Source of the DNA: Defluviitaleaceae bacterium
GTDB lineage: Bacteria; Bacillota; Clostridia; Lachnospirales; WRAX01
Assembly: GCA_009780485.1 (NCBI GenBank)
Contig: WQZZ01000003.1
Span: forward strand, 1-44,549
Length of the DNA stretch: 44,549 nucleotides
Direction: 5' to 3'
Part shown: positions 10,255-27,338 of the stretch, piece after piece
How the letters are laid out: every line of letters starts with the position of its first letter
How positions within the stretch are numbered: position 1 is the first letter of the stretch
Program-made: the position numbers and the translations under genes
Notes under the pieces: model-generated
Seen by the model: the letters and a program-made list of their open reading frames with translations, nothing else
Database searches by the model: none
What the model was told of the DNA's origin: nothing

Positions 10255-10283
10255 TTGACAGACTGGGGTGGGTGTGATAAACT
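10255..10283 (+). promoter_or_regulatory. sigmaA promoter of the riboswitch-led operon
   Basis: TTGACA-17 bp-TAAACT with TG extension. Confidence 0.7.
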
Positions 10284-10299
10284 GTCGGTAAATAGTATA

Positions 10300-10393
10300 T
10301 TTTCTCCGACCCAAAAAACCTAAGGCGATGTGCTACGGTTTAAGGGCGTGGGTGCGTTTGGAAACGGGCGTGCCTTCCATTTCTGAAAAGGGG
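10300..10393 (+). ncRNA. Moco RNA motif riboswitch, P3-less (Tuco-associated) type
   Basis: CTCCGA..ACCTAAG..CTACGGT (P2), GGTGCGTTTG-GAAA-CGGGCGTGCC (P4, G-U rich, GNRA loop), TTCCATTTCTGAAAAGG (P5/P1). mobB lies downstream. Confidence 0.8.
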
Positions 10394-10422
10394 ATAAGCG
10401 TTTGTTTTTGCGTACCCCTTTT
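10386..10422 (+). terminator. Candidate riboswitch expression-platform hairpin
   Basis: AAAAGGGG...CCCCTTTT hairpin overlapping the 3' strand of P1. Confidence 0.45.
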
Positions 10423-10451
10423 GGTGACGCATTTTTTATTGGGGTGATTTT

Positions 10452-11009
10452 GTGATAAAAGCGAGAAAAAGCTTGTTAGCAGGTTTTACCATACTTGACT
10501 TGGTTGTTATCACGGTTCTTTCTGCCCTTGGTGTGGCGATTAGTGGTGTCGTTGGCACCTTGGTGCGTTTGGTGACGGGACCTTTGATGATACCTGGTGG
10601 CTCGGTGGCTGGTGGCATTTACATGTTGTTCCTTGTAATGGCTGTGGTGTTGACGGGTAAAAAGTCGGCGGCAATTTTGGTTGGATTATTACAATCTGTT
10701 ATGGTTCTTATCATGCCTTGGGCGGGTAACCATGGTATCGCAACTTTACTTACATATACTGCACCTGGGGTAGCGATTTTTCTACTTTTGCTGGTGATGC
10801 GACATAAAGGTTGTTGCAAATTCTGTTGTTTTTTCGCCTGTATGGTTGCGAATTTGACGGGTGTTGTCTTGGTTAGTGGTGTGGTAATGCAATTGCCGTT
10901 AGTTCCTATGTTGTTAGGGTTGACTGTAGGTGCGTTATCTGGTGGTTTGGGTGGTCTGCTTACTTGGTCGCTGGCTAAACAACTTAAAAAGTTAGAGGTG
11001 ATAAAATGA
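10452..11009 (+). CDS. ECF transporter S component
   Basis: 185 aa, about 6 TM, FTILDLVVITVLSALG N-terminus. Co-operonic with A, A' and T genes. Confidence 0.8.
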   Translation: MIKARKSLLAGFTILDLVVITVLSALGVAISGVVGTLVRLVTGPLMIPGGSVAGGIYMLFLVMAVVLTGKKSAAILVGLLQSVMVLIMPWAGNHGIATLLTYTAPGVAIFLLLLVMRHKGCCKFCCFFACMVANLTGVVLVSGVVMQLPLVPMLLGLTVGALSGGLGGLLTWSLAKQLKKLEVIK

Positions 11010-12070
11010 TAAAAAGGTTTATTTTACCTGTTGTGGTGCTGGTTGGGCTAGTCTTAGTTGGGTGTGGCGATACGGATAACGGGGAATACGTAGGTAGCCA
11101 GTACATAGGCAGCCGAGATTTTCCGTCCCCAGAGCAGGTGGGTGTTGTCTGGGATGGTGGCTCAACTATTCTTTTCCAATGGGAAGATACAGTTGAAAGT
11201 TACCTAGAGCAAACCTTTGAAGTGGATAATAGAATAGCTGTTTTACTTGCTTCTGGCGAAATTCATTATACAGAAAATTTTGCAGGGGCAAGACTTGTTG
11301 GTTATGAGGGTAACATAGACTTGGTGTTGGTTGACGGCACAACCTTCCTTAATATAGCTGGTGTTATCGCTGACCCGCCTGACATTGTAATAACACAGGC
11401 TTATAACGATGCCTTGGAGCTTTTACAAGAAGGGCATAGGGTAATGATTGTTGTGCTGGACGGATGGGGCTGGCATATGCGTAAATACCACGCTTTTCAT
11501 CAACCCTTTTTATTTCGCCAGCCAGCTCGAAAGGCACATACGGTTTTCCCACCATTTACACCCGTTGCTATGTCTAGTATTTTTACTGGACAAACCCCAG
11601 ATGTACATGGTGTCCATGACAGAGCAACCCGCACCATGTCAGCCCCAGACATTTTCACGGCTGCATACGATTTAGGTTTTTCGTCTACACGTGTGCAAGG
11701 GGGCGTTAATATTGTGCAAACCAGTGTGTTGTCGGCACTCATCCCAAATTTGGGTCATGTGTTTGACACTGACCAAGGAGTGTTTGATGCGGCAATTGCT
11801 CGCATAGACGACAGCGACTTAATGTTTATCCATTTTAATTCTATTGACGACATCTCCCATACCTATGGACCATATAGCCCCCAAGTGGCGGAAGCCTTGG
11901 CGTTCATAGACAGTTTGGTATGGGATTTGGCGGATGCTTGGGACGGCATGATGATAATTACCGCCGACCACGGTCAGCATTATTTGGGGCAAGAAGGGCG
12001 TTTGGGCGACCATTTATGGGTAAGCCATGAAGACATTTTTGTGCCATATCTCATAATTGATGCCAATTGA
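11006..12070 (+). CDS. Alkaline phosphatase superfamily (pyrophosphatase/phosphodiesterase-like) lipoprotein
   Basis: Lipobox LVGC. Metal and nucleophile motifs VVLDG, PPFTPVAMSSIFTG, IDDISH, TADHG, GDH. Confidence 0.8.
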   Translation: MIKRFILPVVVLVGLVLVGCGDTDNGEYVGSQYIGSRDFPSPEQVGVVWDGGSTILFQWEDTVESYLEQTFEVDNRIAVLLASGEIHYTENFAGARLVGYEGNIDLVLVDGTTFLNIAGVIADPPDIVITQAYNDALELLQEGHRVMIVVLDGWGWHMRKYHAFHQPFLFRQPARKAHTVFPPFTPVAMSSIFTGQTPDVHGVHDRATRTMSAPDIFTAAYDLGFSSTRVQGGVNIVQTSVLSALIPNLGHVFDTDQGVFDAAIARIDDSDLMFIHFNSIDDISHTYGPYSPQVAEALAFIDSLVWDLADAWDGMMIITADHGQHYLGQEGRLGDHLWVSHEDIFVPYLIIDAN

Positions 12071-12121
12071 CCTTGAGTGCAGATTTTGCGCCGTCACGTG
12101 ATGACGAATTAGGAGGCTTTT

Positions 12122-12628
12122 ATGTCAAAAAATACTAAAATAATAATCGGGGTTGTTGCCTTGCTTGTGCCTGTGGTTGTAATTCTTGCCGTGCTAAACT
12201 TCCGTGAAATGGAAGAACGTTTAGCGTACCACGTAGAAGGCAGTTTTCGGGTGATAATGGGCGACCAGTCCATGTCGGTTTCCATTGATGATATGATAGA
12301 CATGGGGCTTGTGGTTTTCGATAGTAGCCACCGCAGAGCAGAAGGGTTATTTACAGGGGTTTATCTGCTGGATATATTAGAATTTACTAGTTTGGATTAT
12401 TATAGTGCCAGTTCCCTACAATTTGTGTCCTTTGATGGTTTTCGTTCATCCATAACCATAGCAGAAGCCACCACCCTAGGCAACGCTTTAATTGTTTTTG
12501 GTGAGGATGGTACATCACTCGCAGACCGTGGTGGTGCATGGGAAAACGCCCCGTTTATGCTCGTTTTGCCAAATGATATGTTTCCGCAACGGTGGGCGAG
12601 ATATATAATTGAAATTATTTTGGAGTGA
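12122..12628 (+). CDS. Membrane-anchored protein with a molybdopterin-binding (sulfite oxidase/MsrP-like) domain
   Basis: N-terminal TM. FTGVYLLDIL, FVSFDGF, APFMLV, RWARYIIEI. Confidence 0.7.
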   Translation: MSKNTKIIIGVVALLVPVVVILAVLNFREMEERLAYHVEGSFRVIMGDQSMSVSIDDMIDMGLVVFDSSHRRAEGLFTGVYLLDILEFTSLDYYSASSLQFVSFDGFRSSITIAEATTLGNALIVFGEDGTSLADRGGAWENAPFMLVLPNDMFPQRWARYIIEIILE

Positions 12629-12633
12629 TTAGT

Positions 12634-13362
12634 ATGAAAAAACTTTTAATCTTTATGCTTTTCCTGCTTTTTGTGGTGGGGCTGACAGCTTGTGGTAACA
12701 GTGAAGACGAGCAAGAGGAGGTTGTTGCAACACTGGGCGAAATTGTACCCCATTATCCTCAACACCTAGGTTCTCCAATTGTGCCATTGGAACCAACACC
12801 GCATGAAACTGAACAACCTAGCACACAAGAAACACTTAACATATTAGAAGAACCCGAAAACGTGCAACCAAATATACCAGACAACCAAGAACCACATGAA
12901 GACGAACCCGACGAACCTGCAAATGAACCTGCAATTGTGCCAGAACCAGAACCTGCCGTCTACCATGATGCGGAAGTCGGATTATTTGTAAATGGACAAT
13001 TCTTAGGTAAAAGCAAGCTTGTTGCCATGGAAGTGGTAGAATTTACCGTGACTATACGTCCAGGAACTGACCGAGAGGATATTCGTCAATACCGTGGCGT
13101 TGCCCTTGCTGACATTCTTGCCTACTTTAACATTGACGAAGGCACATCACTAATATTCCACAGTTATGATGGATTTGCAGCGGGCATTACCATGGCAGAA
13201 GCCCTTGACCGCCAACAGGCCTTCATAGCCATCTGGCAAGATGGGCAATATTTTGCACATCGTGGTGATTATTGGGGGGTCGCCCCTTTCCAGCTAGTTA
13301 TGGCACAAGATATTTTCGCCCAGCGGTTTGCCCGTTATATCACGGAGATTGTTGTACAATGA
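12634..13362 (+). CDS. Lipoprotein with Pro/Glu linker and a molybdopterin-binding-like domain
   Basis: Lipobox LTAC. YRGVALADIL, FHSYDGF, APFQLV, RFARYITEI. Confidence 0.72.
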   Translation: MKKLLIFMLFLLFVVGLTACGNSEDEQEEVVATLGEIVPHYPQHLGSPIVPLEPTPHETEQPSTQETLNILEEPENVQPNIPDNQEPHEDEPDEPANEPAIVPEPEPAVYHDAEVGLFVNGQFLGKSKLVAMEVVEFTVTIRPGTDREDIRQYRGVALADILAYFNIDEGTSLIFHSYDGFAAGITMAEALDRQQAFIAIWQDGQYFAHRGDYWGVAPFQLVMAQDIFAQRFARYITEIVVQ

Positions 13363-14003
13363 CGGCGGTAGAGCTTCGCAACATAAGTGTTGATTATGGC
13401 AAATATCCCGTGGTTACGGACTTCTCCCTAACCGTGACGGCAGGGGAAGCTGTTCTAATAAAAGGGCTTTCGGGATGTGGCAAATCCACATTGTTACACG
13501 TGGTTTGCGGGATAATTCCTAGCATAATCGAAGCCAATGTGACAGGAGAAGCCTTGCTTTTTGGTGAAAATGTGACAAGTTTAGATACCGCCACCCGTGC
13601 AAAGAAAATCGGGATTGTATTTCAAAACCCAGAAACCCAGTTGTTTTGCGATAGCGTGGAAGATGAAATTGCCTTTGGGCTGGAAAACCTTTGTGTTCCA
13701 CGTAAAGAAATTGGCGAACGCATAACAGAAATGCTAAATTTAGTGCAGATGAGTGATTTTCGCCATACTTCACCAAAGGAGCTTAGTGGAGGACAAAAGC
13801 AAAGGGTTGTACTTGCGGCAGTGCTGGCATTAGACCCACAAATACTTTTGCTGGATGAAGCCCTGTCACAAATGGATGCAGAAGCTAAGAAGCTACTGTT
13901 GACCCATCTTAAAGCCTTGCGACAGCAGGGCAAAACCATGTTAATGGTTGACCATGATGATGTACTGGCAGAAATTGCCAGTTCCATTATACAACTATCT
14001 TAG
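13359..14003 (+). CDS. ECF transporter ATPase (A)
   Basis: [29 protein letters not shown] overlap with the upstream gene. Confidence 0.9.
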   Translation: MTAVELRNISVDYGKYPVVTDFSLTVTAGEAVLIKGLSGCGKSTLLHVVCGIIPSIIEANVTGEALLFGENVTSLDTATRAKKIGIVFQNPETQLFCDSVEDEIAFGLENLCVPRKEIGERITEMLNLVQMSDFRHTSPKELSGGQKQRVVLAAVLALDPQILLLDEALSQMDAEAKKLLLTHLKALRQQGKTMLMVDHDDVLAEIASSIIQLS

Positions 14004-14019
14004 AGGAGGAAAAAGGAAA

Positions 14020-16506
14020 ATGAAAAAAGTTAGAAATTTTGCAGCTTTACTACTCGCTTTCGTCATTGCAGTGCCAACAATGGTTTTTGGTTTTGAAAAC
14101 CGCACAGAAACGGACATTCGTCTGTTTATTGAAGGGGCAGAGGTGTCCACGGGTGAGCGAGGCAATGAACCTTTTAACGTGGATGGGCGTGTGTTTCTGC
14201 CAATACGTGCATTAACCACGGCTTTTGCACGTGAAGTCCACTGGGAGCCTACAAGCTCTAACCTACATTTTGGCACACGCTACAACGCCCTAAACCACTA
14301 CAATTTGGTGGTAACAATGGGTGGCTATAGCGAATTTACAGACCTTAATTTTATTGAAACCCTTAGCCCGCAAGCCTTTCAAGTGGATGACCGTGGCAAT
14401 ACCAGAAATTTTGAAGGCGTGCCGTTGTCAACTGTTTTAGATATTTTTACATTTGACATGTCCGATGCTTACGGATTTGCCTTTATTGCCGCTGATGGAA
14501 TGTCCACAATCGCAACCACCGAGGACGTAATGGAGCATGGTTGGCTTGTTATCGGTGAGGAGGGTGAACGCTTTACTAGTCGCTATGCTGGTGGACGTGG
14601 ACCATTTATGGTGGTTTTTGCCGAAGATGGTGTGCCTGGTCGCTGGGCTAGAATGCTTGTAGAAATTCAAGTTATTAACCAACCTGGGGAGTATATTTCT
14701 GAAAGACTAATCCAAGTCCTTGCTGACGGGGTGAATGTTGATTTTGCAGACGGTAATGGTAATTATGCAACCCCGTTTATGTTAGACGGTGTAATTTACC
14801 TGCCTGTTCGTGCATTGTCGGTTGCACTTGGCATGACGGTAAATTGGAATGCTAGTGAAAATGCAATTTATGTGGGTGCTACCCCGCAAACTTTCGATGT
14901 TGCTGAAGGCGGCTATTTGGTCGTGAACGCAGGCGGACACCGTATGGTTGTCACCATGGACGATATTCTAGAAATTGGTGTAGTAGACACTTATGCTGTT
15001 ATCCGTGGCGAACGCAGGGATTACAGTGGTGTTCCAATTATTTCAATCGTGGAATTTTTGGGGTTTGACGTGTCTTATGCAACTGGGCAGGTGACATTTG
15101 GCTCACGTGATGGGCATGGCACATCTGCGACCCCAGCGGAAGCTTTCGACCCGACCAACGGCTTTATCGTAATCGCTGAAAATGGTGAGCTTTTGGGGCA
15201 TTGGGAAGCTGGTGGGCGTGGACCTTTCATGGTAATTTTCGCCCAAGACGTTTTCGCCCAGCGTTTTATACGCTATTTGACCGATATTTCTGTCGAGGGT
15301 GTGCCTTCTCCCGCTGGTGGTGGTGTGGATGACCGCTGGAACAACCACCCATTAAGTATCGTAATTGGCGGTTTGTCCCTTAATCTTACCGCTAGCGTCA
15401 TCTATGCAATTGGTGCAAGTGACTTGGAGTGGAACAATCAGAACTTTGTAGCTGTGCCAATGGCTTCGATTATTGAGCATTTTAGTTTGGGTGAAGTTGC
15501 TGGTGGACGCATTGTTGCTGATAATGGTACGGAACATAACATAACTCCTGAAGACATTGAGAATATGTATATTGCAATATACCAAGCTGGACATGAGCCA
15601 GCAACCGACAATCACTTCACCACCGTGTTTGTCGAAGACACCAACAACCAACGCCGTATGCGTGGGCTTGCCACCATATACATTGACGCAGAAGTACAAG
15701 CCGGCTACCCACTAAATATTGAGATTGCAGGACGCACCTATGGCGTTACCGTAGAATTGTTGCAAGAATTAGGTGCAGAAGCCGTCACAGCACGTGACCG
15801 CAACTGGACAGGCACACCCATGACCGCTATAATCGAGCATTTCGACATCAACCTCGACGGCATTGCTGAGGGTGTAGTAATATCTGGTGGAACTGGCTTT
15901 ACCCAACCTTTCACAATTGAAGAACTGCTAGACGAAACCAATTTCTTCCTTGCATTTGAAGAAGACGGCGTGGCTCTTGAGATACAAGAAGGCACAAACA
16001 GCAACATTATGAGCCTTTTCGCCCATGACGAGCGTGCAACCCGTGGCGTGCGTGGCGTTGTAACCGTTCGCTTAATGGCGGAAGATGCTGGTGCTGATGT
16101 GTCAACCACCGTCGAAGGGCTTGAAGATGGTGAGTTTGTAATTCTTCGTGGTGAAGACACTTGGACAATAACCATGGATGACCTTGTAGAGATTGGCTTG
16201 GAAGATTTTGTAACCAACATTCCTACAGGTGGCGGTTCCACCAGATATTTCACTGGCGTGCGTTTATCCGCCATCCTTGAGAGTCAAAACATCAGACTTG
16301 ATGGGGCAACTAATTTCATAACCACATCTTGGGAAAGCACATTTTCTGCTGGATGGAACATCGCTACTGACCTTGATTATATTTTCATAGCGGTTGCAGA
16401 GGACGGCGAGGTGCTAAGTCCCCACAACGGTCCATTCTTTGGCGTGGTGCAACACCGTGGCTCAAACTTTAACCCAAGAAATTTACAAAGTATCAGAATT
16501 AACTAG
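14020..16506 (+). CDS. Secreted surface protein: two copper-amine-oxidase-N (stalk)-like domains + five molybdopterin-binding-like repeats
   Basis: Signal peptide. DGRVFLPIRAL and DGVIYLPVRAL. Repeats FEGVPL, YSGVPI, FVAVPM, WTGTPM, FTGVRL; the best-conserved repeats carry GPF and R-x-x-R motifs. Confidence 0.75.
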   Translation: MKKVRNFAALLLAFVIAVPTMVFGFENRTETDIRLFIEGAEVSTGERGNEPFNVDGRVFLPIRALTTAFAREVHWEPTSSNLHFGTRYNALNHYNLVVTMGGYSEFTDLNFIETLSPQAFQVDDRGNTRNFEGVPLSTVLDIFTFDMSDAYGFAFIAADGMSTIATTEDVMEHGWLVIGEEGERFTSRYAGGRGPFMVVFAEDGVPGRWARMLVEIQVINQPGEYISERLIQVLADGVNVDFADGNGNYATPFMLDGVIYLPVRALSVALGMTVNWNASENAIYVGATPQTFDVAEGGYLVVNAGGHRMVVTMDDILEIGVVDTYAVIRGERRDYSGVPIISIVEFLGFDVSYATGQVTFGSRDGHGTSATPAEAFDPTNGFIVIAENGELLGHWEAGGRGPFMVIFAQDVFAQRFIRYLTDISVEGVPSPAGGGVDDRWNNHPLSIVIGGLSLNLTASVIYAIGASDLEWNNQNFVAVPMASIIEHFSLGEVAGGRIVADNGTEHNITPEDIENMYIAIYQAGHEPATDNHFTTVFVEDTNNQRRMRGLATIYIDAEVQAGYPLNIEIAGRTYGVTVELLQELGAEAVTARDRNWTGTPMTAIIEHFDINLDGIAEGVVISGGTGFTQPFTIEELLDETNFFLAFEEDGVALEIQEGTNSNIMSLFAHDERATRGVRGVVTVRLMAEDAGADVSTTVEGLEDGEFVILRGEDTWTITMDDLVEIGLEDFVTNIPTGGGSTRYFTGVRLSAILESQNIRLDGATNFITTSWESTFSAGWNIATDLDYIFIAVAEDGEVLSPHNGPFFGVVQHRGSNFNPRNLQSIRIN

Positions 16507-16516
16507 CCCCCAAATG

Positions 16517-16569
16517 GTAGTGGCGGGCATTGTCCGCCCTAATCCTGTCGGCACTAATCTCAGAGGTTG
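16517..16569 (+). repeat. Truncated, degenerate REP doublet
   Basis: GTAGTGGCGGGCATTGTCCGCCC followed by GGCACTAATCTCA, as in the full element. Confidence 0.7.
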
Positions 16570-16587
16570 GCTACTTAGGAAAGACAT

Positions 16588-17253
16588 ATGAGCGAATTTA
16601 TTGTAACAATCAAAAATTTGAACTTCAAATACAAAGACCGCTACCGACAAAGTAGCTTTGAACTGATTGTTGATGACTTTTTGACATGTGGTTGTACAGC
16701 CATCATGGGCGAAAACGGTAGTGGAAAAACCACCCTCGGAAAGCTGGTTGCAGGCATACTGCGACCAGCTTTTGGGTGCGTTTTTTACAATGACACAGAT
16801 ATTGCCGGCTTATCTCTAGCCCAAATTGGGCAACAAGTTGGCTATTTGTTCCAAGAGCCTAGCAGGCAGATTTTCGCTCCTAAGCCTTTGGAGGAGATTG
16901 CCATGCCACTAGAATTGCGTGGAATTCCCAAAAAGGAAGCCCACGAAAAAGCTATGGAAATGCTAGAAAAATTTGAGCTAAGCCATATTATAGACAGTGT
17001 AACATTTACCCTAAGCCGTGGGGAAAAACAACGACTGGCAATCGCCTCCGCTATGGTGATGCAACCAAAATATTTTGTGCTGGACGAGCCTACCACAGGA
17101 CTTGACAAAACCAGACGACAAATCCTAGCTGACACCTTGAAAAAATTGCAAGAGGACGGCATGGGTATTCTGTTAATAAGTCACGACATGGATTTTGTGG
17201 AAATGATGGGGGCTACCATACGACAGATGAAGGGTGGTCGGTTCGTTGAATAA
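16588..17253 (+). CDS. ECF transporter ATPase (A')
   Basis: GENGSGKT, FQEPSRQ, LSRGEKQR, LDEPT. Confidence 0.88.
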   Translation: MSEFIVTIKNLNFKYKDRYRQSSFELIVDDFLTCGCTAIMGENGSGKTTLGKLVAGILRPAFGCVFYNDTDIAGLSLAQIGQQVGYLFQEPSRQIFAPKPLEEIAMPLELRGIPKKEAHEKAMEMLEKFELSHIIDSVTFTLSRGEKQRLAIASAMVMQPKYFVLDEPTTGLDKTRRQILADTLKKLQEDGMGILLISHDMDFVEMMGATIRQMKGGRFVE

Positions 17254-18022
17254 CAAAAAACCCGACCCAAGGGTAATTTTTCTGTTGGTGCTGACTTTTT
17301 CCACTCTGGGTCTGCTAATTCGTGAAGATGTGGTGGCGATGGCAGGACTTCTCGTCCTAATCTTGATTTTCTCTGCAATGCTAGGCGTACAACTTCGTAG
17401 AATTTTCGGACGCATCAAACGACTTTTGCAAATAATGATACTTGTAACTCTTATGCGAAGCTTCTTCGCCCCTGCTGGCATTACACTTTTTGCTATTGCC
17501 GAAGTGCCAATCCTTACCACGGGGGGTATTGCTACGGGGCTTTTGGTGGCAATGCGTCTAATTTTGTTTATCATTGGGGCGGCGATGCTGACTGTGTACC
17601 CCGCCCGTGCCTTGATACAAGCCATGGTGCAAATGAAAATACCTTATGAAATGGCGTATATGGTTAGTATTGGATTGCGTTTTGTCCCGCAGTTTGCACA
17701 GGAACTACAAGACAGTCTAATTGCTTTACAGCTACGTGGGGTGGAAATTAAAAAACTGAAATTACGTAAAAGGTTGGGGTTGTACAGCTATTTGCTTCTG
17801 CCCACCCTTGTTTCTAGCCTGCAACAAGCCAAAGAATTAGCTATGTCTATGGAAATGCGGGGTTTTCGTGCTTTACCAAAGCGAACAAGTTTTTTCACCC
17901 TGACCATTGAAGCCAAGGATTACGTTATGGTGTTTAGCGTTTTAGCGATGGCAATCGCCATCGGCTTCACGATTTTCAACCACGACTTTTTTGAAGCATT
18001 AATGAATACTATCACTCTTTGA
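17234..18022 (+). CDS. ECF transporter T component
   Basis: DPR N-terminus, LRFVP, ALQLRG and MEMRG coupling motifs. Start uncertain. Confidence 0.88.
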   Translation: MVGSLNNKKPDPRVIFLLVLTFSTLGLLIREDVVAMAGLLVLILIFSAMLGVQLRRIFGRIKRLLQIMILVTLMRSFFAPAGITLFAIAEVPILTTGGIATGLLVAMRLILFIIGAAMLTVYPARALIQAMVQMKIPYEMAYMVSIGLRFVPQFAQELQDSLIALQLRGVEIKKLKLRKRLGLYSYLLLPTLVSSLQQAKELAMSMEMRGFRALPKRTSFFTLTIEAKDYVMVFSVLAMAIAIGFTIFNHDFFEALMNTITL

Positions 18023-18055
18023 CACTCATATTTTTTTGAATGATAAAATGGAGGT

Positions 18056-18664
18056 ATGTTAAAAATGATTGAAAAAAATCTTTTTGATGTAAAGTTGACG
18101 CTTGAACTCCCAAATTACTCCCTTTACGAGTTGGGATATATTTTAGTTGACCTAAACCAACTCTTTGTGTTTTGTGATTTGTTGGAAGAAGGGTATGTTG
18201 GTCTTGCTGTAGATAAATTTCACAATCAATATTTGTCCAGACGCTCAAAGTTGCTACAAGAGAAGGGTTCTAGATATGAAATAACAAGCATATCTAACGG
18301 AAGCATCATTATGCAGATTACAGGCTTAGGTTCTCTTGCTGTTATTGTTTTACGCTTGATTCTGGATTGTGTGAAAGAGTCTAATAAACTAAGAGGGGAA
18401 ATTATTAAATTTAATATTGAAGTTGATGAGGAAAAATACCATGAGTTGAAGCGCATTATTGATGAAGTTAAGGAATACGAAGCTGAGTTCAACATGGAAA
18501 TCCTCATAAGTATTCTTGTGTCGAAGGGCTTTTTGATTAGGGCGTATGACCACGACTTGTACAAAATAGAAGGGATATTCGAAAGATACGCAAAACGCAT
18601 TGAATCTGTAATGCATATTCCTAGGTACAAAAAGCGGTCGCATACCTCACAAAGAAGGGGGTAA
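18056..18664 (+). CDS. Hypothetical protein, AT-rich
   Basis: 202-aa ORF filling the gap between the T gene and mobB. No motif recognised. Confidence 0.6.
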   Translation: MLKMIEKNLFDVKLTLELPNYSLYELGYILVDLNQLFVFCDLLEEGYVGLAVDKFHNQYLSRRSKLLQEKGSRYEITSISNGSIIMQITGLGSLAVIVLRLILDCVKESNKLRGEIIKFNIEVDEEKYHELKRIIDEVKEYEAEFNMEILISILVSKGFLIRAYDHDLYKIEGIFERYAKRIESVMHIPRYKKRSHTSQRRG

Positions 18665-18668
18665 ACGC

Positions 18669-19463
18669 ATGAAAGTTTTAAGTATTTGTGGTATTTCGGG
18701 CAGTGGTAAGACAACAACAATTGAAGTAATTATTGCGGAGTTAGTTCGCCGTGGTTATCGGGTGGGGTCTGTGAAGGATATACATAACGAACAATTTGCC
18801 ATAGACCCAAGAGAGGACAGCAACACCAACCGCCACAAGCGGGCAGGTGCAACATTGGTTACAGCAAGGGGTTTTTACGAAACCGACATCTTATACCCTA
18901 GCCAGTTACCTATGGATAAGGTTCTGGACATTTATGAACGTGAAGGCTATGATTGGGTGGTTTTGGAAGGCGTGGACTGCATCAAAGTGCCAACCATAGT
19001 CACCGCCTATGGAACAACAGATTTGGAGCAAAAATGGTCTGACATGGCTTTTGCTCTGTCGGGTCGTTTGTCGATGGAGATGTCGGAATATAATGGCAAA
19101 CCCGCTATTGATGCAACTACAAACCCCCAGCAATTGGTGGATTTGATAGAGCTGAAAGTTTATGACCGTCTGCCGAATTTTCCAGATGAATGTTGTATGG
19201 TTTGTGGTTACAGTTGCAACGGATTGGCATCAGCCATAATCGCTGGCAAGGCACGTCGTGCGGATTGCGTTGCCGACAAGGGTATTGAACTACTGGTAAA
19301 TGGACGCAAAATTAAAATGGTGCCATTTGTGCAGGAGGTTTTGAGAAATGCTTTGGTTGGGGTGGTAAGTACACTTGATGGCTACGAAAAGGGGTGCGAT
19401 ATTGAAATTAAACTCACAGACCATTTATTTCAACAGCAAAAGAAATCAAGTCCGACTGATTGA
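18669..19463 (+). CDS. mobB: Molybdopterin-guanine dinucleotide biosynthesis protein B with C-terminal Fe-S-like domain
   Basis: GISGSGKTT, GYRVGSVK, VLEG. C-terminal CxxCGYSC...C. Confidence 0.85.
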   Translation: MKVLSICGISGSGKTTTIEVIIAELVRRGYRVGSVKDIHNEQFAIDPREDSNTNRHKRAGATLVTARGFYETDILYPSQLPMDKVLDIYEREGYDWVVLEGVDCIKVPTIVTAYGTTDLEQKWSDMAFALSGRLSMEMSEYNGKPAIDATTNPQQLVDLIELKVYDRLPNFPDECCMVCGYSCNGLASAIIAGKARRADCVADKGIELLVNGRKIKMVPFVQEVLRNALVGVVSTLDGYEKGCDIEIKLTDHLFQQQKKSSPTD

Positions 19464-20013
19464 TGGGCGGGTGGAGAAAGTCCACGCAACATCCGAAAAA
19501 GCTGACTTTGAAGCCAGTAGATTGACCCAGTTGTACAAGGCTGGACTTGATGTGCCAAAGGTAATTGATGTTGTTGAAAATGTGGTTATTATGGAGTATA
19601 TAAACGCCAAACCTTTACCTGATTTGATTGATGAATGGGAGCAAAACCCCGATGTTATTTCCCAGGAAAAGGCAGCGAAGGGCTTGGTTGAATGGCTGGA
19701 AGCCTTTTATAAAGCCGTTGACACAGGCGAAAGTCGAGGGGATATAAACGGCAGAAACTTTCTATTTGATGGGGAGAAAATATGGGGTGTAGACTTTGAG
19801 GAAGTCGCTCATGGCACGCCTTTGGAGGACATAGGGCAACTTCTTGCCTTCATCACCACCTATCACCCCGCCCACACCGACCTGAAAATCCGATTATCTC
19901 GCATAATTGCACAGTGGGCGGCGGAGATTTTCCGCATCGACCCTACCGAAATTAAGCGACAACAGGAATTGGCTGTTGAATTTTTACAAAGCCGTAGAAA
20001 GGGCATAAAATGA
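19402..20013 (+). CDS. Protein-kinase-like (APH/RIO/Kdo-type) phosphotransferase
   Basis: VPKV, MEYI, RGDINGRN, VDFE, EDIG motifs. Start uncertain (TTG after AAAGGGGTG). Confidence 0.7.
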   Translation: MKLNSQTIYFNSKRNQVRLIDGRVEKVHATSEKADFEASRLTQLYKAGLDVPKVIDVVENVVIMEYINAKPLPDLIDEWEQNPDVISQEKAAKGLVEWLEAFYKAVDTGESRGDINGRNFLFDGEKIWGVDFEEVAHGTPLEDIGQLLAFITTYHPAHTDLKIRLSRIIAQWAAEIFRIDPTEIKRQQELAVEFLQSRRKGIK

Positions 20014-20711
20014 AGGTTTTAGTTTTTGATTTGGGTGGCACGTTGATGGAGTATGAAGGTATGCCTAATTCTTGGACGGGTTATTATCAAGTAGGTTTTG
20101 AAGCTATAAACGACGATTTCGGATTAGGCTTGTCACAAGTCGACATACAAAAATCCTGCGAGATTTTGACGAGCAAGAACGCACGTGTGGTATATCGTGA
20201 AATTGAATATACACCCAATGAAATTTTTGCAAAAGTGACCGCTCATTGGCACAAAAAGATGGATTTGGACGACATAATAAATAGCTTTTTCAAAGGGCAT
20301 GAGCTGAAGCCCGTCATTTATAAGGATACCATTGACTATTTGTGCCACTTGAGAAGGAAAGGCATTAAAATTGCCGCACTGACTGACCTGCCCACCGCCA
20401 TGCCTGATGAAATTTTCAAAAAAGACATACCAGAAATTCTGTCTCATCTTGATTTGTATGTGTCGTCTTTAACCTGTGGTTTTCGCAAACCCAACAAAAA
20501 CGGGCTTTTGTATATATCTGAATATTTCGGTGTTGACGTTTGTGACCTTATTTTCATTGGTGATGAGGAAAAGGATATTAAAGCAGCGAAAAATGCCAGT
20601 TGTGTGTCAGTGTTGATTGATAGGAAAAATGACAAAAAAGATTATGGTCAAGATTTTACAGTAACTTCCTTGTCTGAATTAGAACAAATTTTGGAAGCTG
20701 GTGGTGAGTAA
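20010..20711 (+). CDS. HAD-superfamily hydrolase
   Basis: FDLGGTL, RKP, IGDEEKDI motifs. Confidence 0.88.
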   Translation: MKVLVFDLGGTLMEYEGMPNSWTGYYQVGFEAINDDFGLGLSQVDIQKSCEILTSKNARVVYREIEYTPNEIFAKVTAHWHKKMDLDDIINSFFKGHELKPVIYKDTIDYLCHLRRKGIKIAALTDLPTAMPDEIFKKDIPEILSHLDLYVSSLTCGFRKPNKNGLLYISEYFGVDVCDLIFIGDEEKDIKAAKNASCVSVLIDRKNDKKDYGQDFTVTSLSELEQILEAGGE

Positions 20712-22930: not shown

Positions 22931-23749
22931 CTACCAAACACCATACAACCCTGCCACAAAATTCAGCACAAAAATCCCGCCTGTTAGTGTGGCCAGGCTG
23001 ACAAACGCACCGAGGTCACGCAACGCCATTTTCGTTTGCTTCATGCGGGTTCTTCCAATGTCACCACGGTAGCAACGAGATTCCATGGCAAGTGCCAATT
23101 CTTCGGCACGTCGAAAAGCGGAAATGAACAGGGGTACAAGTAGAGGTACAAGACTGCGTGCTTTTTTGACAATACCACCCGTGTCAAAATCCGCACCACG
23201 TGCCATTTGTGCCTTCATAATTTTGTCCATCTCCTCAATTAAGGTGGGGATGAAACGGAGGGCTATTGTCATCATCATGGCAATTTCGTGGGCTGGCACA
23301 CCAATTTTTTTCAGCGGCTTTAAGCCAAATTCAATAGCGTCGGTCAGCTGGATTGGGGTGGTTGTCAGCGTCAAAATGGACGAGCCTATGATTAGCATAA
23401 TAAGACGCAAGCCCATGCGACCAGCCGCCAGCAAGCCCTCCTGTGTAACCCTGATAAAACCAAGCTCGAACACCAAGGTTTCCCCTGGTGTGAAAAACAC
23501 GTTGAGGATTGCCGTAAACACAATGATAAACAGGATTGCCCGTAATCCACGGATTAAAAACCGTGGCGGCACTTTGGAAACCTTGATAATGGTTGCTAAA
23601 TACAACGCCGCCAAAGCATATCCTAAAAAGTTGTTGATGAAAAATATCACCACAATAAAAATCATGGTGCAAAGCAATTTCATCCTTGCATCCAGCCTGT
23701 GGATTATGGAATCCGCTGGGTAATATTGACCTATGGTGACTTTTAGCAT
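22931..23749 (-). CDS. ecfT: ECF transporter transmembrane component
   Basis: IGQYYP..SIIHRLDAR, ALRFIPT, AQMARG, AMESRCY. Confidence 0.95.
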   Translation of the reverse strand: MLKVTIGQYYPADSIIHRLDARMKLLCTMIFIVVIFFINNFLGYALAALYLATIIKVSKVPPRFLIRGLRAILFIIVFTAILNVFFTPGETLVFELGFIRVTQEGLLAAGRMGLRLIMLIIGSSILTLTTTPIQLTDAIEFGLKPLKKIGVPAHEIAMMMTIALRFIPTLIEEMDKIMKAQMARGADFDTGGIVKKARSLVPLLVPLFISAFRRAEELALAMESRCYRGDIGRTRMKQTKMALRDLGAFVSLATLTGGIFVLNFVAGLYGVW

Positions 23750-23761
23750 TTTTTCACCTCT

Positions 23762-24478
23762 CTAATGTCTAGAAATCGACAACAATTTTATCAAAAGTAT
23801 GATAAACCCAAAGAAGGCAACAATAGAATTAAACAAAAGCGGTATATTCGCAATAATGTCTAGAGTTAATTCAACTTCAGAATAAATAATCAGACTGATA
23901 ACGGTACTGGAAATCGACGATACTACAAACAACCAAAAAGGTATGTCATTACCTAAGCAAAGCCATGGGTATGCACGCCTATAAGAACTATGGTGTCGAA
24001 ATATCTCATGCTTGTACTTTTTCGGCTTATTTTGAGATACCAAAACCCTTCGCACTAGGTTCAAGTAATGTTTGGAAAACGCTCTTAATTTAGTTGTGAC
24101 ATCTTTTGTCTTTGGGTTGTCCATCTCCAATTTTGACGTCAATTCCATTGTAGCAACTTGCAATTTGCCATCCCCAAGTAATTCTTCTAAAATAGAATCG
24201 CTTGCAACTTTATTTAAGAGCTGATTACATATGCGTTTGATTTCGCTCCATTCTTGTTTCCTAAAATGTAACTCTTGCTTGTTACTATATCCCTTAAAAA
24301 GGTATGGCTCAATAAATCTTTTTAAGGGTGCGTGGATTTCATGGTAAATTTTGTTGGCTTGTTCAGGGGTAAACATCAACCTTTTTTCGGACAAGTTACT
24401 GATTATTTTCCAAAGTAATGCCCATATTGCTGAAATAGTAGCCACAATCACTGAAACCGTTAACCAGAAATCACTCAT
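23762..24478 (-). CDS. Hypothetical membrane protein inserted in the ecf operon
   Basis: N-terminal TM and two C-terminal TMs. AT-rich. Overlaps the ecfA2 stop. Confidence 0.65.
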   Translation of the reverse strand: MSDFWLTVSVIVATISAIWALLWKIISNLSEKRLMFTPEQANKIYHEIHAPLKRFIEPYLFKGYSNKQELHFRKQEWSEIKRICNQLLNKVASDSILEELLGDGKLQVATMELTSKLEMDNPKTKDVTTKLRAFSKHYLNLVRRVLVSQNKPKKYKHEIFRHHSSYRRAYPWLCLGNDIPFWLFVVSSISSTVISLIIYSEVELTLDIIANIPLLFNSIVAFFGFIILLIKLLSISRH

Positions 24479-25323
24479 CTGCAGATGCCCTTCGATATAG
24501 CGGTTACGGCTTCATCAACGGTGAAAATGTTGGGGGGTAAGGTGAAACCTTTAGACTGCAAATCCCGCATGATGTAAGCGGTTTGGGTGCTGGATAGACC
24601 AATGGCTTCCAGCTCATCAAATTTGGAGAAAATTTCAGCAGGTGTGCCTGTCAACACGATTTTACCACCATTTATCACCAAAATACGATTCACAAGGCGG
24701 GCGATGTCCTCCATGCTGTGGGACACCAAAATAACGGTAATACCAAGGGTTTCGTGCATTCGCTTTACTTGCCCCAAAATCTCATCACGCCCACGAGGGT
24801 CAAGTCCTGCAGCGGGTTCGTCCAATACCAAAATTTCGGGACGCATGGCAAGCACCCCCGCAATTGCCACACGGCGTTTTTGTCCGCCAGACAGCTCAAA
24901 GGGTGACTTTTCGTGAAGTTCAGGGGCGATGCCCACCATTTCCAACGAAGACTTAACACGCTCATCGACTTCCTCGTTTGACAGACCTGCGTTTTTCGGA
25001 CCAAAAGCCACGTCTTTGTATACCGTCATGTCAAAAAGCTGATGTTCTGGATATTGAAAAACCAAGCCGACCTTGGTGCGGATGGCTTTAAGTCTTGATT
25101 TATCGGCATTTATGTCCTCGCCGTCAATTATAATATTGCCCGACTGGGGCTTGATAAGGGCGTTAAGGTGCTGAACCAGCGTGGACTTGCCCGAGCCTGT
25201 ATGCCCGATAAGTCCCACAAAATCACCCTTTTCAATGGTCAAATTTATCTCATCCAACGCCTTTTTCTCGAAGGCAGAACCTTTGCCGTAGTAGTGGCAT
25301 AAATTTTTAATTTCTATTGACAT
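24475..25323 (-). CDS. ecfA2: ECF ATPase A2
   Basis: [29 protein letters not shown]. Confidence 0.95.
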
Positions 25324-26173
25324 TCACTAACGCCTCCACCAATTGGTCGCCTGTTACAATACCCCTAGGCAAATCAACCCCACCAAGGCGTAATTTATGG
25401 GCAATTTCCGCCGCCTGTGGCACATCCAGCCCAATTTCTTTTAACTCGTCAATTTTGGTAAAGATTTCATTTGGAATACCTTCCATAACGACTTTCCCGT
25501 CGTTCATTACGATTATCCTGTCAGCCTGTGCCGCTTCATCCATGTAGTGGGTGATTAGGATTATTGTGATACCTTCGGCGTTTAGACGACGTGCAACCGC
25601 CATAACCTCTCGTCGTCCAATGGGGTCAAGCATGGCGGTGGATTCGTCCATAACAATAATATCAGGACGCATCGCCAAAATGCCAGCAATCGCAACCCGC
25701 TGCTTTTGCCCCCCCGACAAATGATGAGGAGGATTGCCCGCAAATGCCGTCATTCCTACGGCTTCCAATGCTTCATCTACCCGCTGGCGAATCTCGGCGG
25801 GCGGAATACCTAAATTCTCGGGTCCGAAAGCCACGTCTTCCTCAACAATTGTGGCTATTATCTGGTTGTCGGGATTTTGAAACACCATGCCCACAGATTG
25901 GCGTATTTCCCAAGTTTTTTCTTCCTCGGTCGTGGAAATGCCTTTCACCCACACCGTACCTTCTTTAGGTAAAAGTAAACCATTGATATGCTTAGCTAAA
26001 GTTGACTTACCAGAGCCGTTATGACCCAAAACCGCCACAAACTCCCCCTTGCTAATGGAGATGGACACGCCATCCAAAGCCACATTAGGGGGAGTTTCGT
26101 CAGTTTTGTCTTCCGTGTCAGATTGCACTGCATATTCAAACACAATTTCATCAGTTTTAACAACAATTTCCAT
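25307..26173 (-). CDS. ecfA1: ECF ATPase A1
   Basis: [32 protein letters not shown]. Confidence 0.95.
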
Positions 26174-26186
26174 AAGAACTCCTATT

Positions 26187-26654
26187 TCATTTGTAGGTGA
26201 CTTCCCATGTGGTTTCCTCACCACTCCACTTGATAAAAACTTCGTTATATTTTCCAGTTTGATGAAATAGTGGCGAGGGAGCATAATGGGGTGAGGAGAA
26301 CTTATCCTTTGGGGCAGACAGCAATTTGTCTACATCCATCCAAAATTGCTCCCCCTCATCAGTTTCGGTGATAAGGTTACCATTAAAGTCCGTGGTTTTG
26401 TACATAAAGCACATATAACGATCGTCATCTTCACGGTTGACCCAGTGGACAATCCCACAAAATTCTAAATTCGCAACGTCTAGCCCAGTTTCTTCCTTAA
26501 CTTCTCGAATAGCACAATCATATATACTTTCGCCATGCTCCACATGACCGCCAGGAAAAGCCCATCCAGGGTATTTACGTTTGCGATTTTGTACCAATAC
26601 TTCTTTGGTTTGTGGGTTTTGTATCATTATGCAAGTTGTTAATTCTACACTCAC
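26187..26654 (-). CDS. NUDIX hydrolase (MutT/MutX-like)
   Basis: [25 protein letters not shown] Nudix box. Confidence 0.9.
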
Positions 26655-26657
26655 TGC

Positions 26658-27338
26658 TTACTCCCTCACCTCGAAATATTCCCTGCGAATTTCACCGCCA
26701 CCAGTAATGGTAATCGGCCAATTGCCTAGCGTTGTGGTTGACCCAATACGCCAAATCCAATAGGCATTACCATACTCGTCCGTCAACACATAACCGAGTC
26801 CTACAGCAGTGCTTGCTCCAGCCAAAAATTCCACACCCAAATGATAGTAGGTGAGGGGGCGACCTATAATTGACAGCGTTGCGTCTGTGCCACGCCCCAC
26901 TGTATAAGGAAAATCGACAACTTGGATGTGGGTGCTGGTGACATGTATTGTGCCATCATTAAAATTAACGTCCATACCCAACGCCTCTGTTACAAAACGC
27001 AAAGGTACAAGGGTTGCATAATTAATAATCATGGCTGGCACGTCCAACAAAACTTCGTTGCCGTTTACCAACGCAACATTGCTGTCAATATGCAAAACAA
27101 GGGCATTGTGCTTATGGATAATATCCACACGGCGGGCATCGCCACACCAATCAACTTCGCCACCCAAAATATCTTGGACAAACACACGAACAGGCACTAA
27201 AGTGCGTCCATCCCGCACCTCCATAGCGACTTGGATGGGTTGATTATCAAGTGTTACATTAAAATTAGCCATGGCGACAGTTGCTGGCACAAAAACCAGC
27301 ATAGCTACCAAAAATATTCCAAGAACCAGCTTTCTCAT
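26658..27338 (-). CDS. Secreted copper amine oxidase N-terminal domain protein
   Basis: Signal peptide. DGRTLVPVR and TLVPLRFVTEALG. Confidence 0.8.
   Translation of the reverse strand: MRKLVLGIFLVAMLVFVPATVAMANFNVTLDNQPIQVAMEVRDGRTLVPVRVFVQDILGGEVDWCGDARRVDIIHKHNALVLHIDSNVALVNGNEVLLDVPAMIINYATLVPLRFVTEALGMDVNFNDGTIHVTSTHIQVVDFPYTVGRGTDATLSIIGRPLTYYHLGVEFLAGASTAVGLGYVLTDEYGNAYWIWRIGSTTTLGNWPITITGGGEIRREYFEVRE

Follow-up and report, generated by a model that had tools for sequence, protein, structure and literature searches.

A Moco/Tuco Riboswitch-Controlled ECF Operon with Cysteine-Free Sulfite Oxidase-Fold Surface Domains: A Candidate Importer of Molybdo-/Tungstopterin Cofactor

Introduction

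To our knowledge, it is generally held that a cell using the molybdenum and tungsten pterin cofactors (Moco and Tuco) makes its own, uptake being known only in nematodes that feed on bacteria, and the energy-coupling factor (ECF) importers that we know of normally function without extracytoplasmic binding proteins. Here we analyze a stretch of 44,549 nucleotides from a Defluviitaleaceae bacterium (GenBank assembly GCA_009780485.1, contig WQZZ01000003.1, positions 1 to 44,549 of the forward strand; this whole stretch is called the window below), in which a Moco/Tuco riboswitch aptamer precedes the genes of an ECF importer and of three surface proteins, named here TM168, Lipo245 and Sec828, carrying seven cysteine-free domains predicted to have the sulfite oxidase (SUOX) Moco-binding fold. 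We consider it probable, at roughly 60%, that these three proteins are the capture proteins of an ECF importer scavenging preformed molybdo- or tungstopterin cofactor or a closely related compound (for example, one of its dinucleotide or dephospho derivatives).

The closest described relative of the domains is PruR. It has been reported, in the part of the published account available to us (PMC11194511), that PruR is a secreted, cysteine-less, degenerate SUOX fold in which the molybdenum-ligand hairpin is truncated and a tryptophan replaces the cysteine, and that Y104 and W160 enclose a small pterin from both sides while N102 forms a hydrogen bond with it. In the available sections of Regulski et al. 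2008 (PMC2408646), Moco/Tuco RNAs lacking the P3 hairpin are correlated with tungsten-cofactor metabolism, and the regulon targets are molybdate and tungstate transporters, molybdopterin (MPT) synthesis genes and cofactor-using enzymes, an ECF importer not being named there. The same sections place two P3-less RNAs before 'putative sulphite oxidase' genes of Syntrophomonas wolfei, and these genes may be members of the domain family described below. A regulon survey (PMC3766115) lists 'molybdenum & tungsten transporters' and, in its accessible text, contains no cofactor-uptake category for Moco, its supplementary tables being a place where such genes could be named. The terms Gram-positive, Firmicutes, Bacillota, ECF and riboswitch are all absent from a 2026 review of pterin signalling in bacteria. 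In the full-text literature searched, a scope outside which many subscription papers fall, no description of a bacterial Moco/Tuco uptake system of this kind was found, and the system looks undescribed.

Surface Proteins and Their Seven Domain Copies

As shown in Table 1, the domain, about 120–130 amino acids (aa) long, occurs in seven homologous copies, one each in TM168 and Lipo245 and five in Sec828. Copies in Sec828 were sought with a hidden Markov model (HMM) seeded with the TM168 and Lipo245 domains, and the Lipo245 domain itself is recovered by a genome-wide profile match at 13006-13359 (E 2.6e-31). Domain 3 of Sec828 was confirmed by hhalign against a family alignment of 107 sequences, with a probability of 94.4% and an E of 8.6e-8 over 109 columns. 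In Pfam, where the cut-off of PF00174 is 24 bits, Sec828 scores 47.8 and lies above it, TM168 (16.7) and Lipo245 (20.5) lie below it, and the best-scoring stretch of Sec828 (aa 737-804) lies within domain 5. G96 and R126 are the only invariant columns of the seven-copy alignment. Lipo245, whose lipobox reads LTAC, more likely starts with the ATG at 12634. A twin-arginine signal is absent from all three proteins as read from their sequences, and no LPXTG or SLH motif was seen in Sec828 on inspection by eye. The gene for the EcfA ATPase (13359-14003) falls inside the stretch 12122-16506 and does not encode a domain protein.

An earlier note, made from this DNA alone, had proposed seven extracellular cysteine-less domains, one membrane-anchored, one on a lipoprotein and five in a secreted protein of 828 aa, and the HMM, hhalign and cysteine counts bear this out: TM168 and Sec828 contain no cysteine, and Lipo245 contains only Cys23 of its lipobox. 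The three anchoring topologies that it distinguished can be read from sequence signals, namely a transmembrane (TM) anchor, a lipobox with a long, flexible linker of ~95 aa and a secreted form. What it called stalk-like domains of the 828-aa protein correspond to the two Cu_amine_oxidN1 stretches (Pfam, 5.5e-13), and the copies that it described as degenerate are domains 3-5, which have lost most of the motif residues in the seven-copy alignment.

Fold and Pterin Pocket

The AlphaFold2 model of TM168, built with 107 aligned relatives, has a mean pLDDT of 94.6. Compared by Foldseek with the PDB, the model gives 46 matches at E<=1e-3, led by PruR (7KOM, 7KOU, 7KOS; ~2e-7) and followed by the sulfite dehydrogenase SorA, YedY, and chicken and plant sulfite oxidases, with the SUOX enzymes at E values of 1e-6 to 1e-4; 9a64_A is the sole entry among the matches listed that is neither PruR nor a SUOX enzyme. 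In the VIA comparison, PruR entries reach Z 14.2-15.7, with 7KOM at Z 15.7 and a root-mean-square deviation (rmsd) of 2.5 over 122 of 134 residues. Residues 146-309 of chicken sulfite oxidase likewise give Z 15.7, and 3HBG, 1OGP and 1SOX give Z 15.7, 15.6 and 15.2 with an rmsd of 2.7-2.8 over 125-126 aa; Z falls to 11.4 for YedY, and the next unrelated family reaches only Z 5.3. The family profile finds the same relatives among PDB sequences (7KOM 1e-7, 7KOS 6e-7, SorA 1e-4). The model of Sec828 is middling (pLDDT 76, pTM 0.40); it shows the strand/helix pattern repeated five times, and its Foldseek matches are mainly SUOX and PruR entries. By these models, the seven domains are predicted to have the SUOX Moco-binding fold.

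In the HMMER alignment with PruR, D105 of the family (106 of 107 sequences) falls on the contact residue N102, and Y/F107 (105 of 107) on Y104. The alignment ends before W160 of PruR; a W158 is present in the family, and the PW motif of PruR has no counterpart in the alignment. The Cys-less state is not family-wide, as 54 of 107 relatives have a cysteine in a 'QRWCK' stretch that reads Ala in the window's copies. This cysteine was considered as an alternative molybdenum ligand and rejected; it occurs in only 54 of 107 sequences and aligns with a Val of SorA ('YWVK'), and is therefore not a conserved metal ligand.

The MsrP/sulfite oxidase fold that the earlier note proposed was thus recovered when AlphaFold and Foldseek were run on TM168 and Sec828, as a SUOX/PruR fold and no different one. 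The note had also taken the domains to be non-catalytic, which is supported in that the molybdenum-ligand cysteine is missing in all seven and the nearest solved relatives are the Cys-less, pterin-binding PruR proteins. Independent support for its link to a molybdenum/tungsten cofactor comes from the riboswitch, the ECF importer, MobB and the carrier genomes without Moco synthesis genes, which are described below.

The Riboswitch-Controlled ECF Operon

The genes from ~10255 to 20013 form one operon under a Moco/Tuco riboswitch (Table 1), with the S, A, A' and T components of an ECF transporter (PF09819, TIGR04520, TIGR04521 and PF02361) in one co-directional cluster. The alignment of the RF01055 aptamer shows that its P3 hairpin is deleted, and the aptamer ends 42 nt upstream of the start codon of the S component. 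The Rfam scan found no other riboswitch family in the window, the terminator scan found no terminator upstream of the operon, and the leader, folded as a single sequence, scores no better than shuffled versions of itself (z -0.17).

Searched against solved structures, the S-component profile gave no match at E<=1. The cysteine motif CCxxCCxxxC of the S component reads 'RHKGCCKFCCFFAC' at residues 121-130. It may be a metal or Fe-S site; a 'GCCxxCC' form is present in ~25 of 76 S-component orthologues and absent in the others, as read by eye from the printed alignment. The phosphodiesterase lipoprotein has a weak phosphonoacetate hydrolase match that covers its FT..TG and DHG motifs. A SUOX-like N-terminal domain in this lipoprotein was considered and rejected, with 0 of 68 orthologues matching at E<=1e-5 and an hhalign probability of 0.4% for the window's N-terminus. 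The RIO-like kinase retains the catalytic GDxxxxN and DF in an alignment with Rio2. A domain search found no GGDEF/EAL regulator of the DcpA type among the open reading frames (ORFs) of the window.

Table 1. Features of the operon in the window and of the surface-domain copies that it encodes.
Feature	Position	Strand	Evidence and remarks
Sigma-70-like promoter	10255..10283	+	TTGACA-17-TAAACT, TG before -10; consensus scan 10/12, pattern match only
Moco/Tuco riboswitch aptamer RF01055, P3-less variant	10292..10409	+	66.1 bits vs gathering score 36
ECF S component, 185 aa	10452..11009	+	PF09819 42.4 bits; CCxxCCxxxC at residues 121-130
Alkaline-phosphatase-superfamily lipoprotein (NPP/PhnA-like phosphodiesterase)	11006..12070	+	PF01663 8.7e-16
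TM168	12122..12628	+	N-terminal TM anchor; single Cys-free SUOX/PruR-fold domain, aa 36-168
Lipo245	12625..13362	+	Lipoprotein; Pro/Glu-rich linker of ~95 aa; one domain, aa 119-245
EcfA-type ATPase	13359..14003	+	TIGR04520 4.2e-53, PF00005
Sec828	14020..16506	+	Signal peptide; two Cu_amine_oxidN1 domains (~aa 27-90, 225-292); five SUOX/PruR-fold domains
Sec828 domain 1	14293..14676	+	aa 92-219; motifs largely kept; seed HMM i-E 1.9e-15 (aa 98-217); genome profile 1.9e-24
Sec828 domain 2	14899..15297	+	aa 294-426; motifs kept; seed HMM i-E 1.7e-26 (aa 301-426); genome profile 2.0e-32
Sec828 domain 3	15352..15699	+	aa 445-560; degenerate; seed HMM only 0.12 (aa 472-528)
Sec828 domain 4	15712..16089	+	aa 565-690; degenerate; seed HMM 1.6e-5 (aa 593-658); genome profile 1.4e-14
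Sec828 domain 5	16108..16503	+	aa 697-828; partly degenerate; seed HMM 2.7e-11 (aa 703-807); genome profile 9.9e-14
EcfA'-type ATPase	16588..17253	+	TIGR04521 4.2e-45
EcfT (CbiQ family) transmembrane component	17234..18022	+	PF02361 6.4e-21
hyp202, 202-aa ORF between ecfT and mobB	18056..18664	+	No Pfam/NCBIfam match
MobB P-loop protein fused to putative Fe-S domain	18669..19463	+	PF03205 1.4e-16, PF04060, NF011064 3.6e-32
RIO/APH-like small kinase	19375..20013	+	PF01163 4.2e-10; true start may be downstream of listed TTG

No homologue of the hyp202 gene (18056-18664) or of a HAD gene (20010-20711) was found in the 80 related loci described below, and both were excluded from the system. Elsewhere in the window, a second ECF-type module lies on the reverse strand at 22931-26284, comprising a CbiQ-family T component, a 238-aa ORF without a Pfam match and two ABC ATPases, and it adjoins a NUDIX gene and the gene of a secreted Cu_amine_oxidN1 protein (26658-27338).

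Conservation of the Locus in Related Bacteria

A library search with the domain profile gave 659 representative clusters at E<=1e-3, and the family is annotated as 'molybdopterin-binding oxidoreductase' or 'hypothetical'. Most of the 150 matches listed are TM-anchored single-domain proteins of ~170 aa. In two among these 150 (P0079 and P0130) the domain is fused to a PF09819 S component, which places the TM-anchored type next to the transporter.

With a closer sub-alignment, 80 related loci were fetched by a pattern search from Bacillota and Actinomycetota; as the search pattern contained the family cysteine, these loci are biased to Cys-bearing relatives, and two broader alignments yielded no conserved stretch for such a search. 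By tblastn of the window's proteins, the S component was found in 75 of the 80 loci, the phosphodiesterase lipoprotein in 70, EcfT in 71, the MobB-FeS protein in 66 and the kinase in 51, and a TM168 homologue occupies the equivalent place in the operon in 75; the genes mostly keep one order, with many of the misses lying at contig ends. Rfam RF01055 was found in 6 of 16 loci tested. With a covariance model trained on eight copies of the Moco/Tuco riboswitch, 43 of the 80 loci gave a match, in every case on the strand of the operon; in 41 loci the match precedes the S component by 0.5-7.2 kb, and in 2 it follows it. Of the 37 loci without a match, 15 were fetched with under 2 kb of upstream sequence or lack an S component in the retrieved stretch.

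Counted by ORFs and HMM matches, at least two domain-bearing proteins are encoded on the operon strand in 68 of the 80 loci, so several differently anchored surface proteins are the rule. There are one to five surface proteins per locus and 25 ORFs with at least two domains across the 80 loci, and in other species extra lipoproteins with the same domain are encoded between the riboswitch and the S component. Of the forms encountered here, that of the window is the most elaborate, its seven domains being spread over three topologies. In some lipoproteins (loci L004, L030 and L068, e.g., L004:6573-7961) the SUOX-like domain is fused to FMN_bind (PF04205), and in some loci the riboswitch-controlled operon contains, again between the riboswitch and the S component, DUF364/DUF4213, FmdE and a BtuCDF-like ABC system; these fusions and genes are hints of an extracytoplasmic redox step. 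One locus has a group II intron domain immediately after the operon (RF02001, 48.4 bits; L073:10753-10876).

Cofactor Genes in Carrier Genomes

The occurrence of cofactor genes was compared in a class sample of ~400 Clostridia genomes of at least 90% completeness, in which a carrier is a genome with a domain profile match at E<=1e-8. Besides the window's own genome, 29 carriers were found. When the tables were cross-read by hand, MoaC was present in 27 of these 29 and in 57 of ~370 non-carriers, MoaE in 15 of 29 and 7 of ~370, and AOR in 28 of 29 and 25 of ~370. The association with AOR and MoaC means that the system belongs to users of pterin cofactors, above all to users of AOR-type tungstoenzymes, which agrees with the P3-less form of the riboswitch. 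All AOR-positive, MoaC-negative genomes were expected to carry the system, but only 1 of 4 does. The absence of MoaE was dropped as evidence, detection being too weak in Clostridia, where a match is found in 22 of ~400 genomes compared with 85 for MoaC; either the MoaE sequences of this class have diverged strongly or a different route to MPT is used by many of its members.

Two carriers of the class sample lack MoaC, namely G166 (100% complete, from the order of the window's genome) and G107 (96%, 10 contigs). In both genomes, no MoaC, MoaE, MoaA C-terminal domain or MoeA_N was found, and the only PF00994 match is CinA. RF01055 occurs exactly once in each of the two genomes, ahead of this ECF system. 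The operon of G166 comprises the S component, the TM-anchored domain and MobA, and is divergent from an FdhA-type gene; the full operon of G107 adjoins an AOR gene with a ferredoxin and a ThiF-like gene.

In addition, 50 further carrier genomes were reached through the 80 loci; these 50 had been picked beforehand, mainly by locus length, and the other 30 loci were left out. MoaC is present in 34 of these genomes and missing from 16, and in the 16 neither the MoaA C-terminal domain (0 of 16) nor MoeA_N (0 of 16) was found. AOR occurs in 8 of the 16 and a PF00384 enzyme, mostly with one in-frame TGA, in 8, so that 15 of 16 have at least one of the two, and in five (L053, L071, L079, L081 and L082) MobA and an FdhA homologue are encoded inside the fetched ECF locus. 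Altogether 18 carriers, among which related genomes are not independent of one another, lack MoaA, MoaC and MoeA, and 17 of the 18 encode AOR or an enzyme of the formate dehydrogenase (FDH) type.

The window's genome is a metagenome-assembled genome of 2.04 Mb and 85.7% completeness. It has a second P3-less Moco/Tuco riboswitch (C95:3903-4021, reverse strand), behind which lie moaC, moaA, a MOSC gene, a moaB/mogA-like gene and a TupA/TupB-like tungstate transporter (C95:1-3803, L086); the same MoaD/E-less, MOSC-containing cluster is described for Dehalobacter in the available part of PMC4751268. Salvage by auxotrophy of this host was considered and rejected, since moaA, moaC and moeA are present. 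Its sole PF00384 enzyme (C107:1742-3208, L083/L087) has one in-frame TGA in an 857-aa frame; it is apparently a selenocysteine formate dehydrogenase, the likely consumer of the cofactor. No AOR match was found in this 85.7% complete genome.

A Proposed Mechanism of Cofactor Import

We infer the identity of the ligand, the direction of transport, the relay between the three surface proteins and the roles of the phosphodiesterase, the kinase and MobB, the roles of the accessory proteins following the usual logic of vitamin salvage. The cysteine-free domains would bind the pterin moiety without performing chemistry on it, the intact copies being those of TM168, Lipo245 and domains 1-2 of Sec828; domains 3-5 and the two Cu_amine_oxidN1 domains of Sec828 would be mainly spacers or attachment modules. 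By analogy, the three proteins may work as a NEAT-like relay, with Sec828 held in the wall by its Cu_amine_oxidN1 domains. The alkaline-phosphatase-family lipoprotein could trim a phosphate or nucleotide outside the cell, after which the membrane-proximal TM168 would hand the ligand to the PF09819 S component, and import would be powered by EcfA, EcfA' and EcfT. Inside the cell, the RIO-like kinase, by re-phosphorylation, and the MobB-FeS protein might re-activate or chaperone the cofactor for enzymes such as the putative selenocysteine-type formate dehydrogenase, and the riboswitch would turn the operon off at cofactor repletion. In hosts able to make the cofactor, import would be a supplement that, for example, spares a costly pathway or recovers cofactor from lysed neighbours.

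Several points weigh against import of a finished cofactor. The window's genome encodes moaA, moaC, a moaB/mogA-like gene and two MoeA copies, MoaE not being detected in it at 85.7% completeness, and MoaC is present in 27 of the 29 good-quality carriers, so the system is not needed for survival in most hosts. Few Clostridia give a MoaE match at all relative to MoaC. At E<=1e-3, no match to the domain or to the S component was found in three AOR-positive, MoaC-negative genomes (G059, G142 and G218), and the ECF system therefore cannot be the sole answer for AOR users without synthesis. Among the 18 synthesis-less carriers, the 16 reached through the loci are of unreported completeness, and as moaA, moaC and moeA are often clustered, their joint absence does not amount to three independent observations. 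Free Moco is very labile. The hairpin appears shortened, the TM168 model having 132 residues compared with 164 in the aligned stretch of sulfite oxidase (VIA), and the PruR pocket is stated, in the available part of PMC11194511, to be too short for Moco and to fit small pterins. With a pocket apparently shortened as in PruR, the domains may bind Moco as a whole, only the pterin part of it, or a trimmed derivative.

Alternative Explanations

Carriers that have pterin enzymes and no synthesis genes argue for the import of a finished or near-finished cofactor, and they bear against two of the three alternatives considered. It is unlikely that the ECF module takes up tungstate or molybdate, or thio- or complexed forms of them, for de novo synthesis, with the surface domains acting as metal or anion traps. 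Such a role would fit the common control of molybdenum and tungsten transporters by Moco/Tuco riboswitches (available sections of PMC2408646), the CCxxCC motif in ~25 of 76 S components, the presence of DUF364/DUF4213 ('putative heavy-metal chelation') and FmdE genes in other riboswitch-controlled loci, and the MoaC and AOR counts (27 and 28 of 29), by which most carriers could use imported metal; however, the 18 carriers without MoaA, MoaC and MoeA could not use it, although 17 of them encode an AOR or FDH-type enzyme. Moreover, the fold is known for pterins and not for oxyanions, the phosphodiesterase and the kinase would have no role, most S-component orthologues lack the CCxxCC motif, and a TupA/TupB-like tungstate transporter is already encoded after the second riboswitch of this genome, a point that we count for cofactor import. 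Nor does it seem probable that the ligand is a pterin other than Moco, of the neopterin/monapterin type or a folate or queuosine precursor, served by an importer or a PruR-like sensor with only an indirect link to Moco. The S component would allow this, the characterized member of PF09819 presumably being the S component for HMP/thiamine, as would the nearest solved relatives, the PruR proteins, which bind neopterin-type pterins in a truncated pocket, the hairpin of the molybdenum-ligand cysteine appearing shortened here too. Such a ligand would leave unexplained RF01055 upstream in 41 of 80 loci with no other riboswitch family found in the window, MobB-FeS in 66 of 80 loci with MobA in its place in the minimal operon of G166, and the near-complete association with AOR (28 of 29 carriers); the window's ORFs also include no GGDEF/EAL partner of the DcpA type, and the PW motif of PruR has no counterpart in the alignment.

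A reversed direction, in which the ECF module sends cofactor outward to load SUOX-fold extracytoplasmic redox enzymes on the surface, appears highly improbable. In Listeria, FAD export by an ECF variant has been reported, the FMN_bind fusions of other species (PF04205) belong to extracytoplasmic electron transfer, and the three proteins have no twin-arginine signal, so that their cofactor would have to be loaded outside the cell. But all seven domains are free of cysteine and the family has no obligatory one (54 of 107), three of the five Sec828 domains lack the conserved motif residues, and carriers without MoaA, MoaC and MoeA would have no cofactor to export.

If cofactor import is the correct explanation, the AOR and FDH genomes without any synthesis genes would be accounted for, a widespread family now annotated 'molybdopterin-binding oxidoreductase' or 'hypothetical' would gain a function, cofactor cross-feeding in anaerobic communities would become testable, and the system would be a rare case of an ECF transporter with extracytoplasmic binding proteins. 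Beyond this, we suggest only tentatively that the molybdenum/tungsten pterin cofactor may be a shared vitamin in at least two phyla, imported intact and metal-loaded by a riboswitch-controlled ECF system through a NEAT-like relay of surface domains that extends across the cell wall, with lineages lacking MoaA, MoaC and MoeA running AOR and FDH entirely on the cofactor of their neighbours.

Comparison with Known Systems

Five described systems share parts of this design. The group I ECF vitamin importers, such as YkoEDC for HMP/thiamine, share the PF09819 S component with its own EcfA, EcfA' and EcfT and the control by a riboswitch, but here each locus has one to five surface proteins with a binding fold and there are fusions of the S component with the domain. 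The NEAT-domain (Isd) heme relay likewise places one binding fold at several depths of the envelope and ends at a membrane transporter; the fold, the ligand and the transporter class differ, and no sortase signal is present here. The window's riboswitch has the same P3-less form as RNAs of the regulon of Regulski et al., but stands ahead of an ECF importer operon.

With the Moco domains of the SUOX enzymes (sulfite oxidase, SorA and YedY/MsrP; PF00174), the domains share the fold, and the family stretch D.F.QRW.K aligns with YYGTYWVK of SorA; unlike those enzymes, they lack the molybdenum-ligand cysteine, a dimerization or heme domain and a Tat signal and are ~30 residues shorter than the aligned part of sulfite oxidase. 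PruR of Agrobacterium, Vibrio and Klebsiella (7KOU, 7KOS, 7KOM, 7KP2 and 7RKB) is the closest match in both structure and sequence, and like the domains of the window it is a small, exported, Cys-less and non-catalytic SUOX fold with a shortened hairpin, its contact residues N102 and Y104 being kept here as D and Y/F. The identity is only ~12-17%, however, no PW motif is seen in the alignment, and a DcpA-type GGDEF/EAL partner is missing here. In contrast to PruR, the present domains are membrane- or lipid-anchored or multimerized, and they are encoded in an ECF operon behind a Moco/Tuco riboswitch in Bacillota and Actinomycetota.

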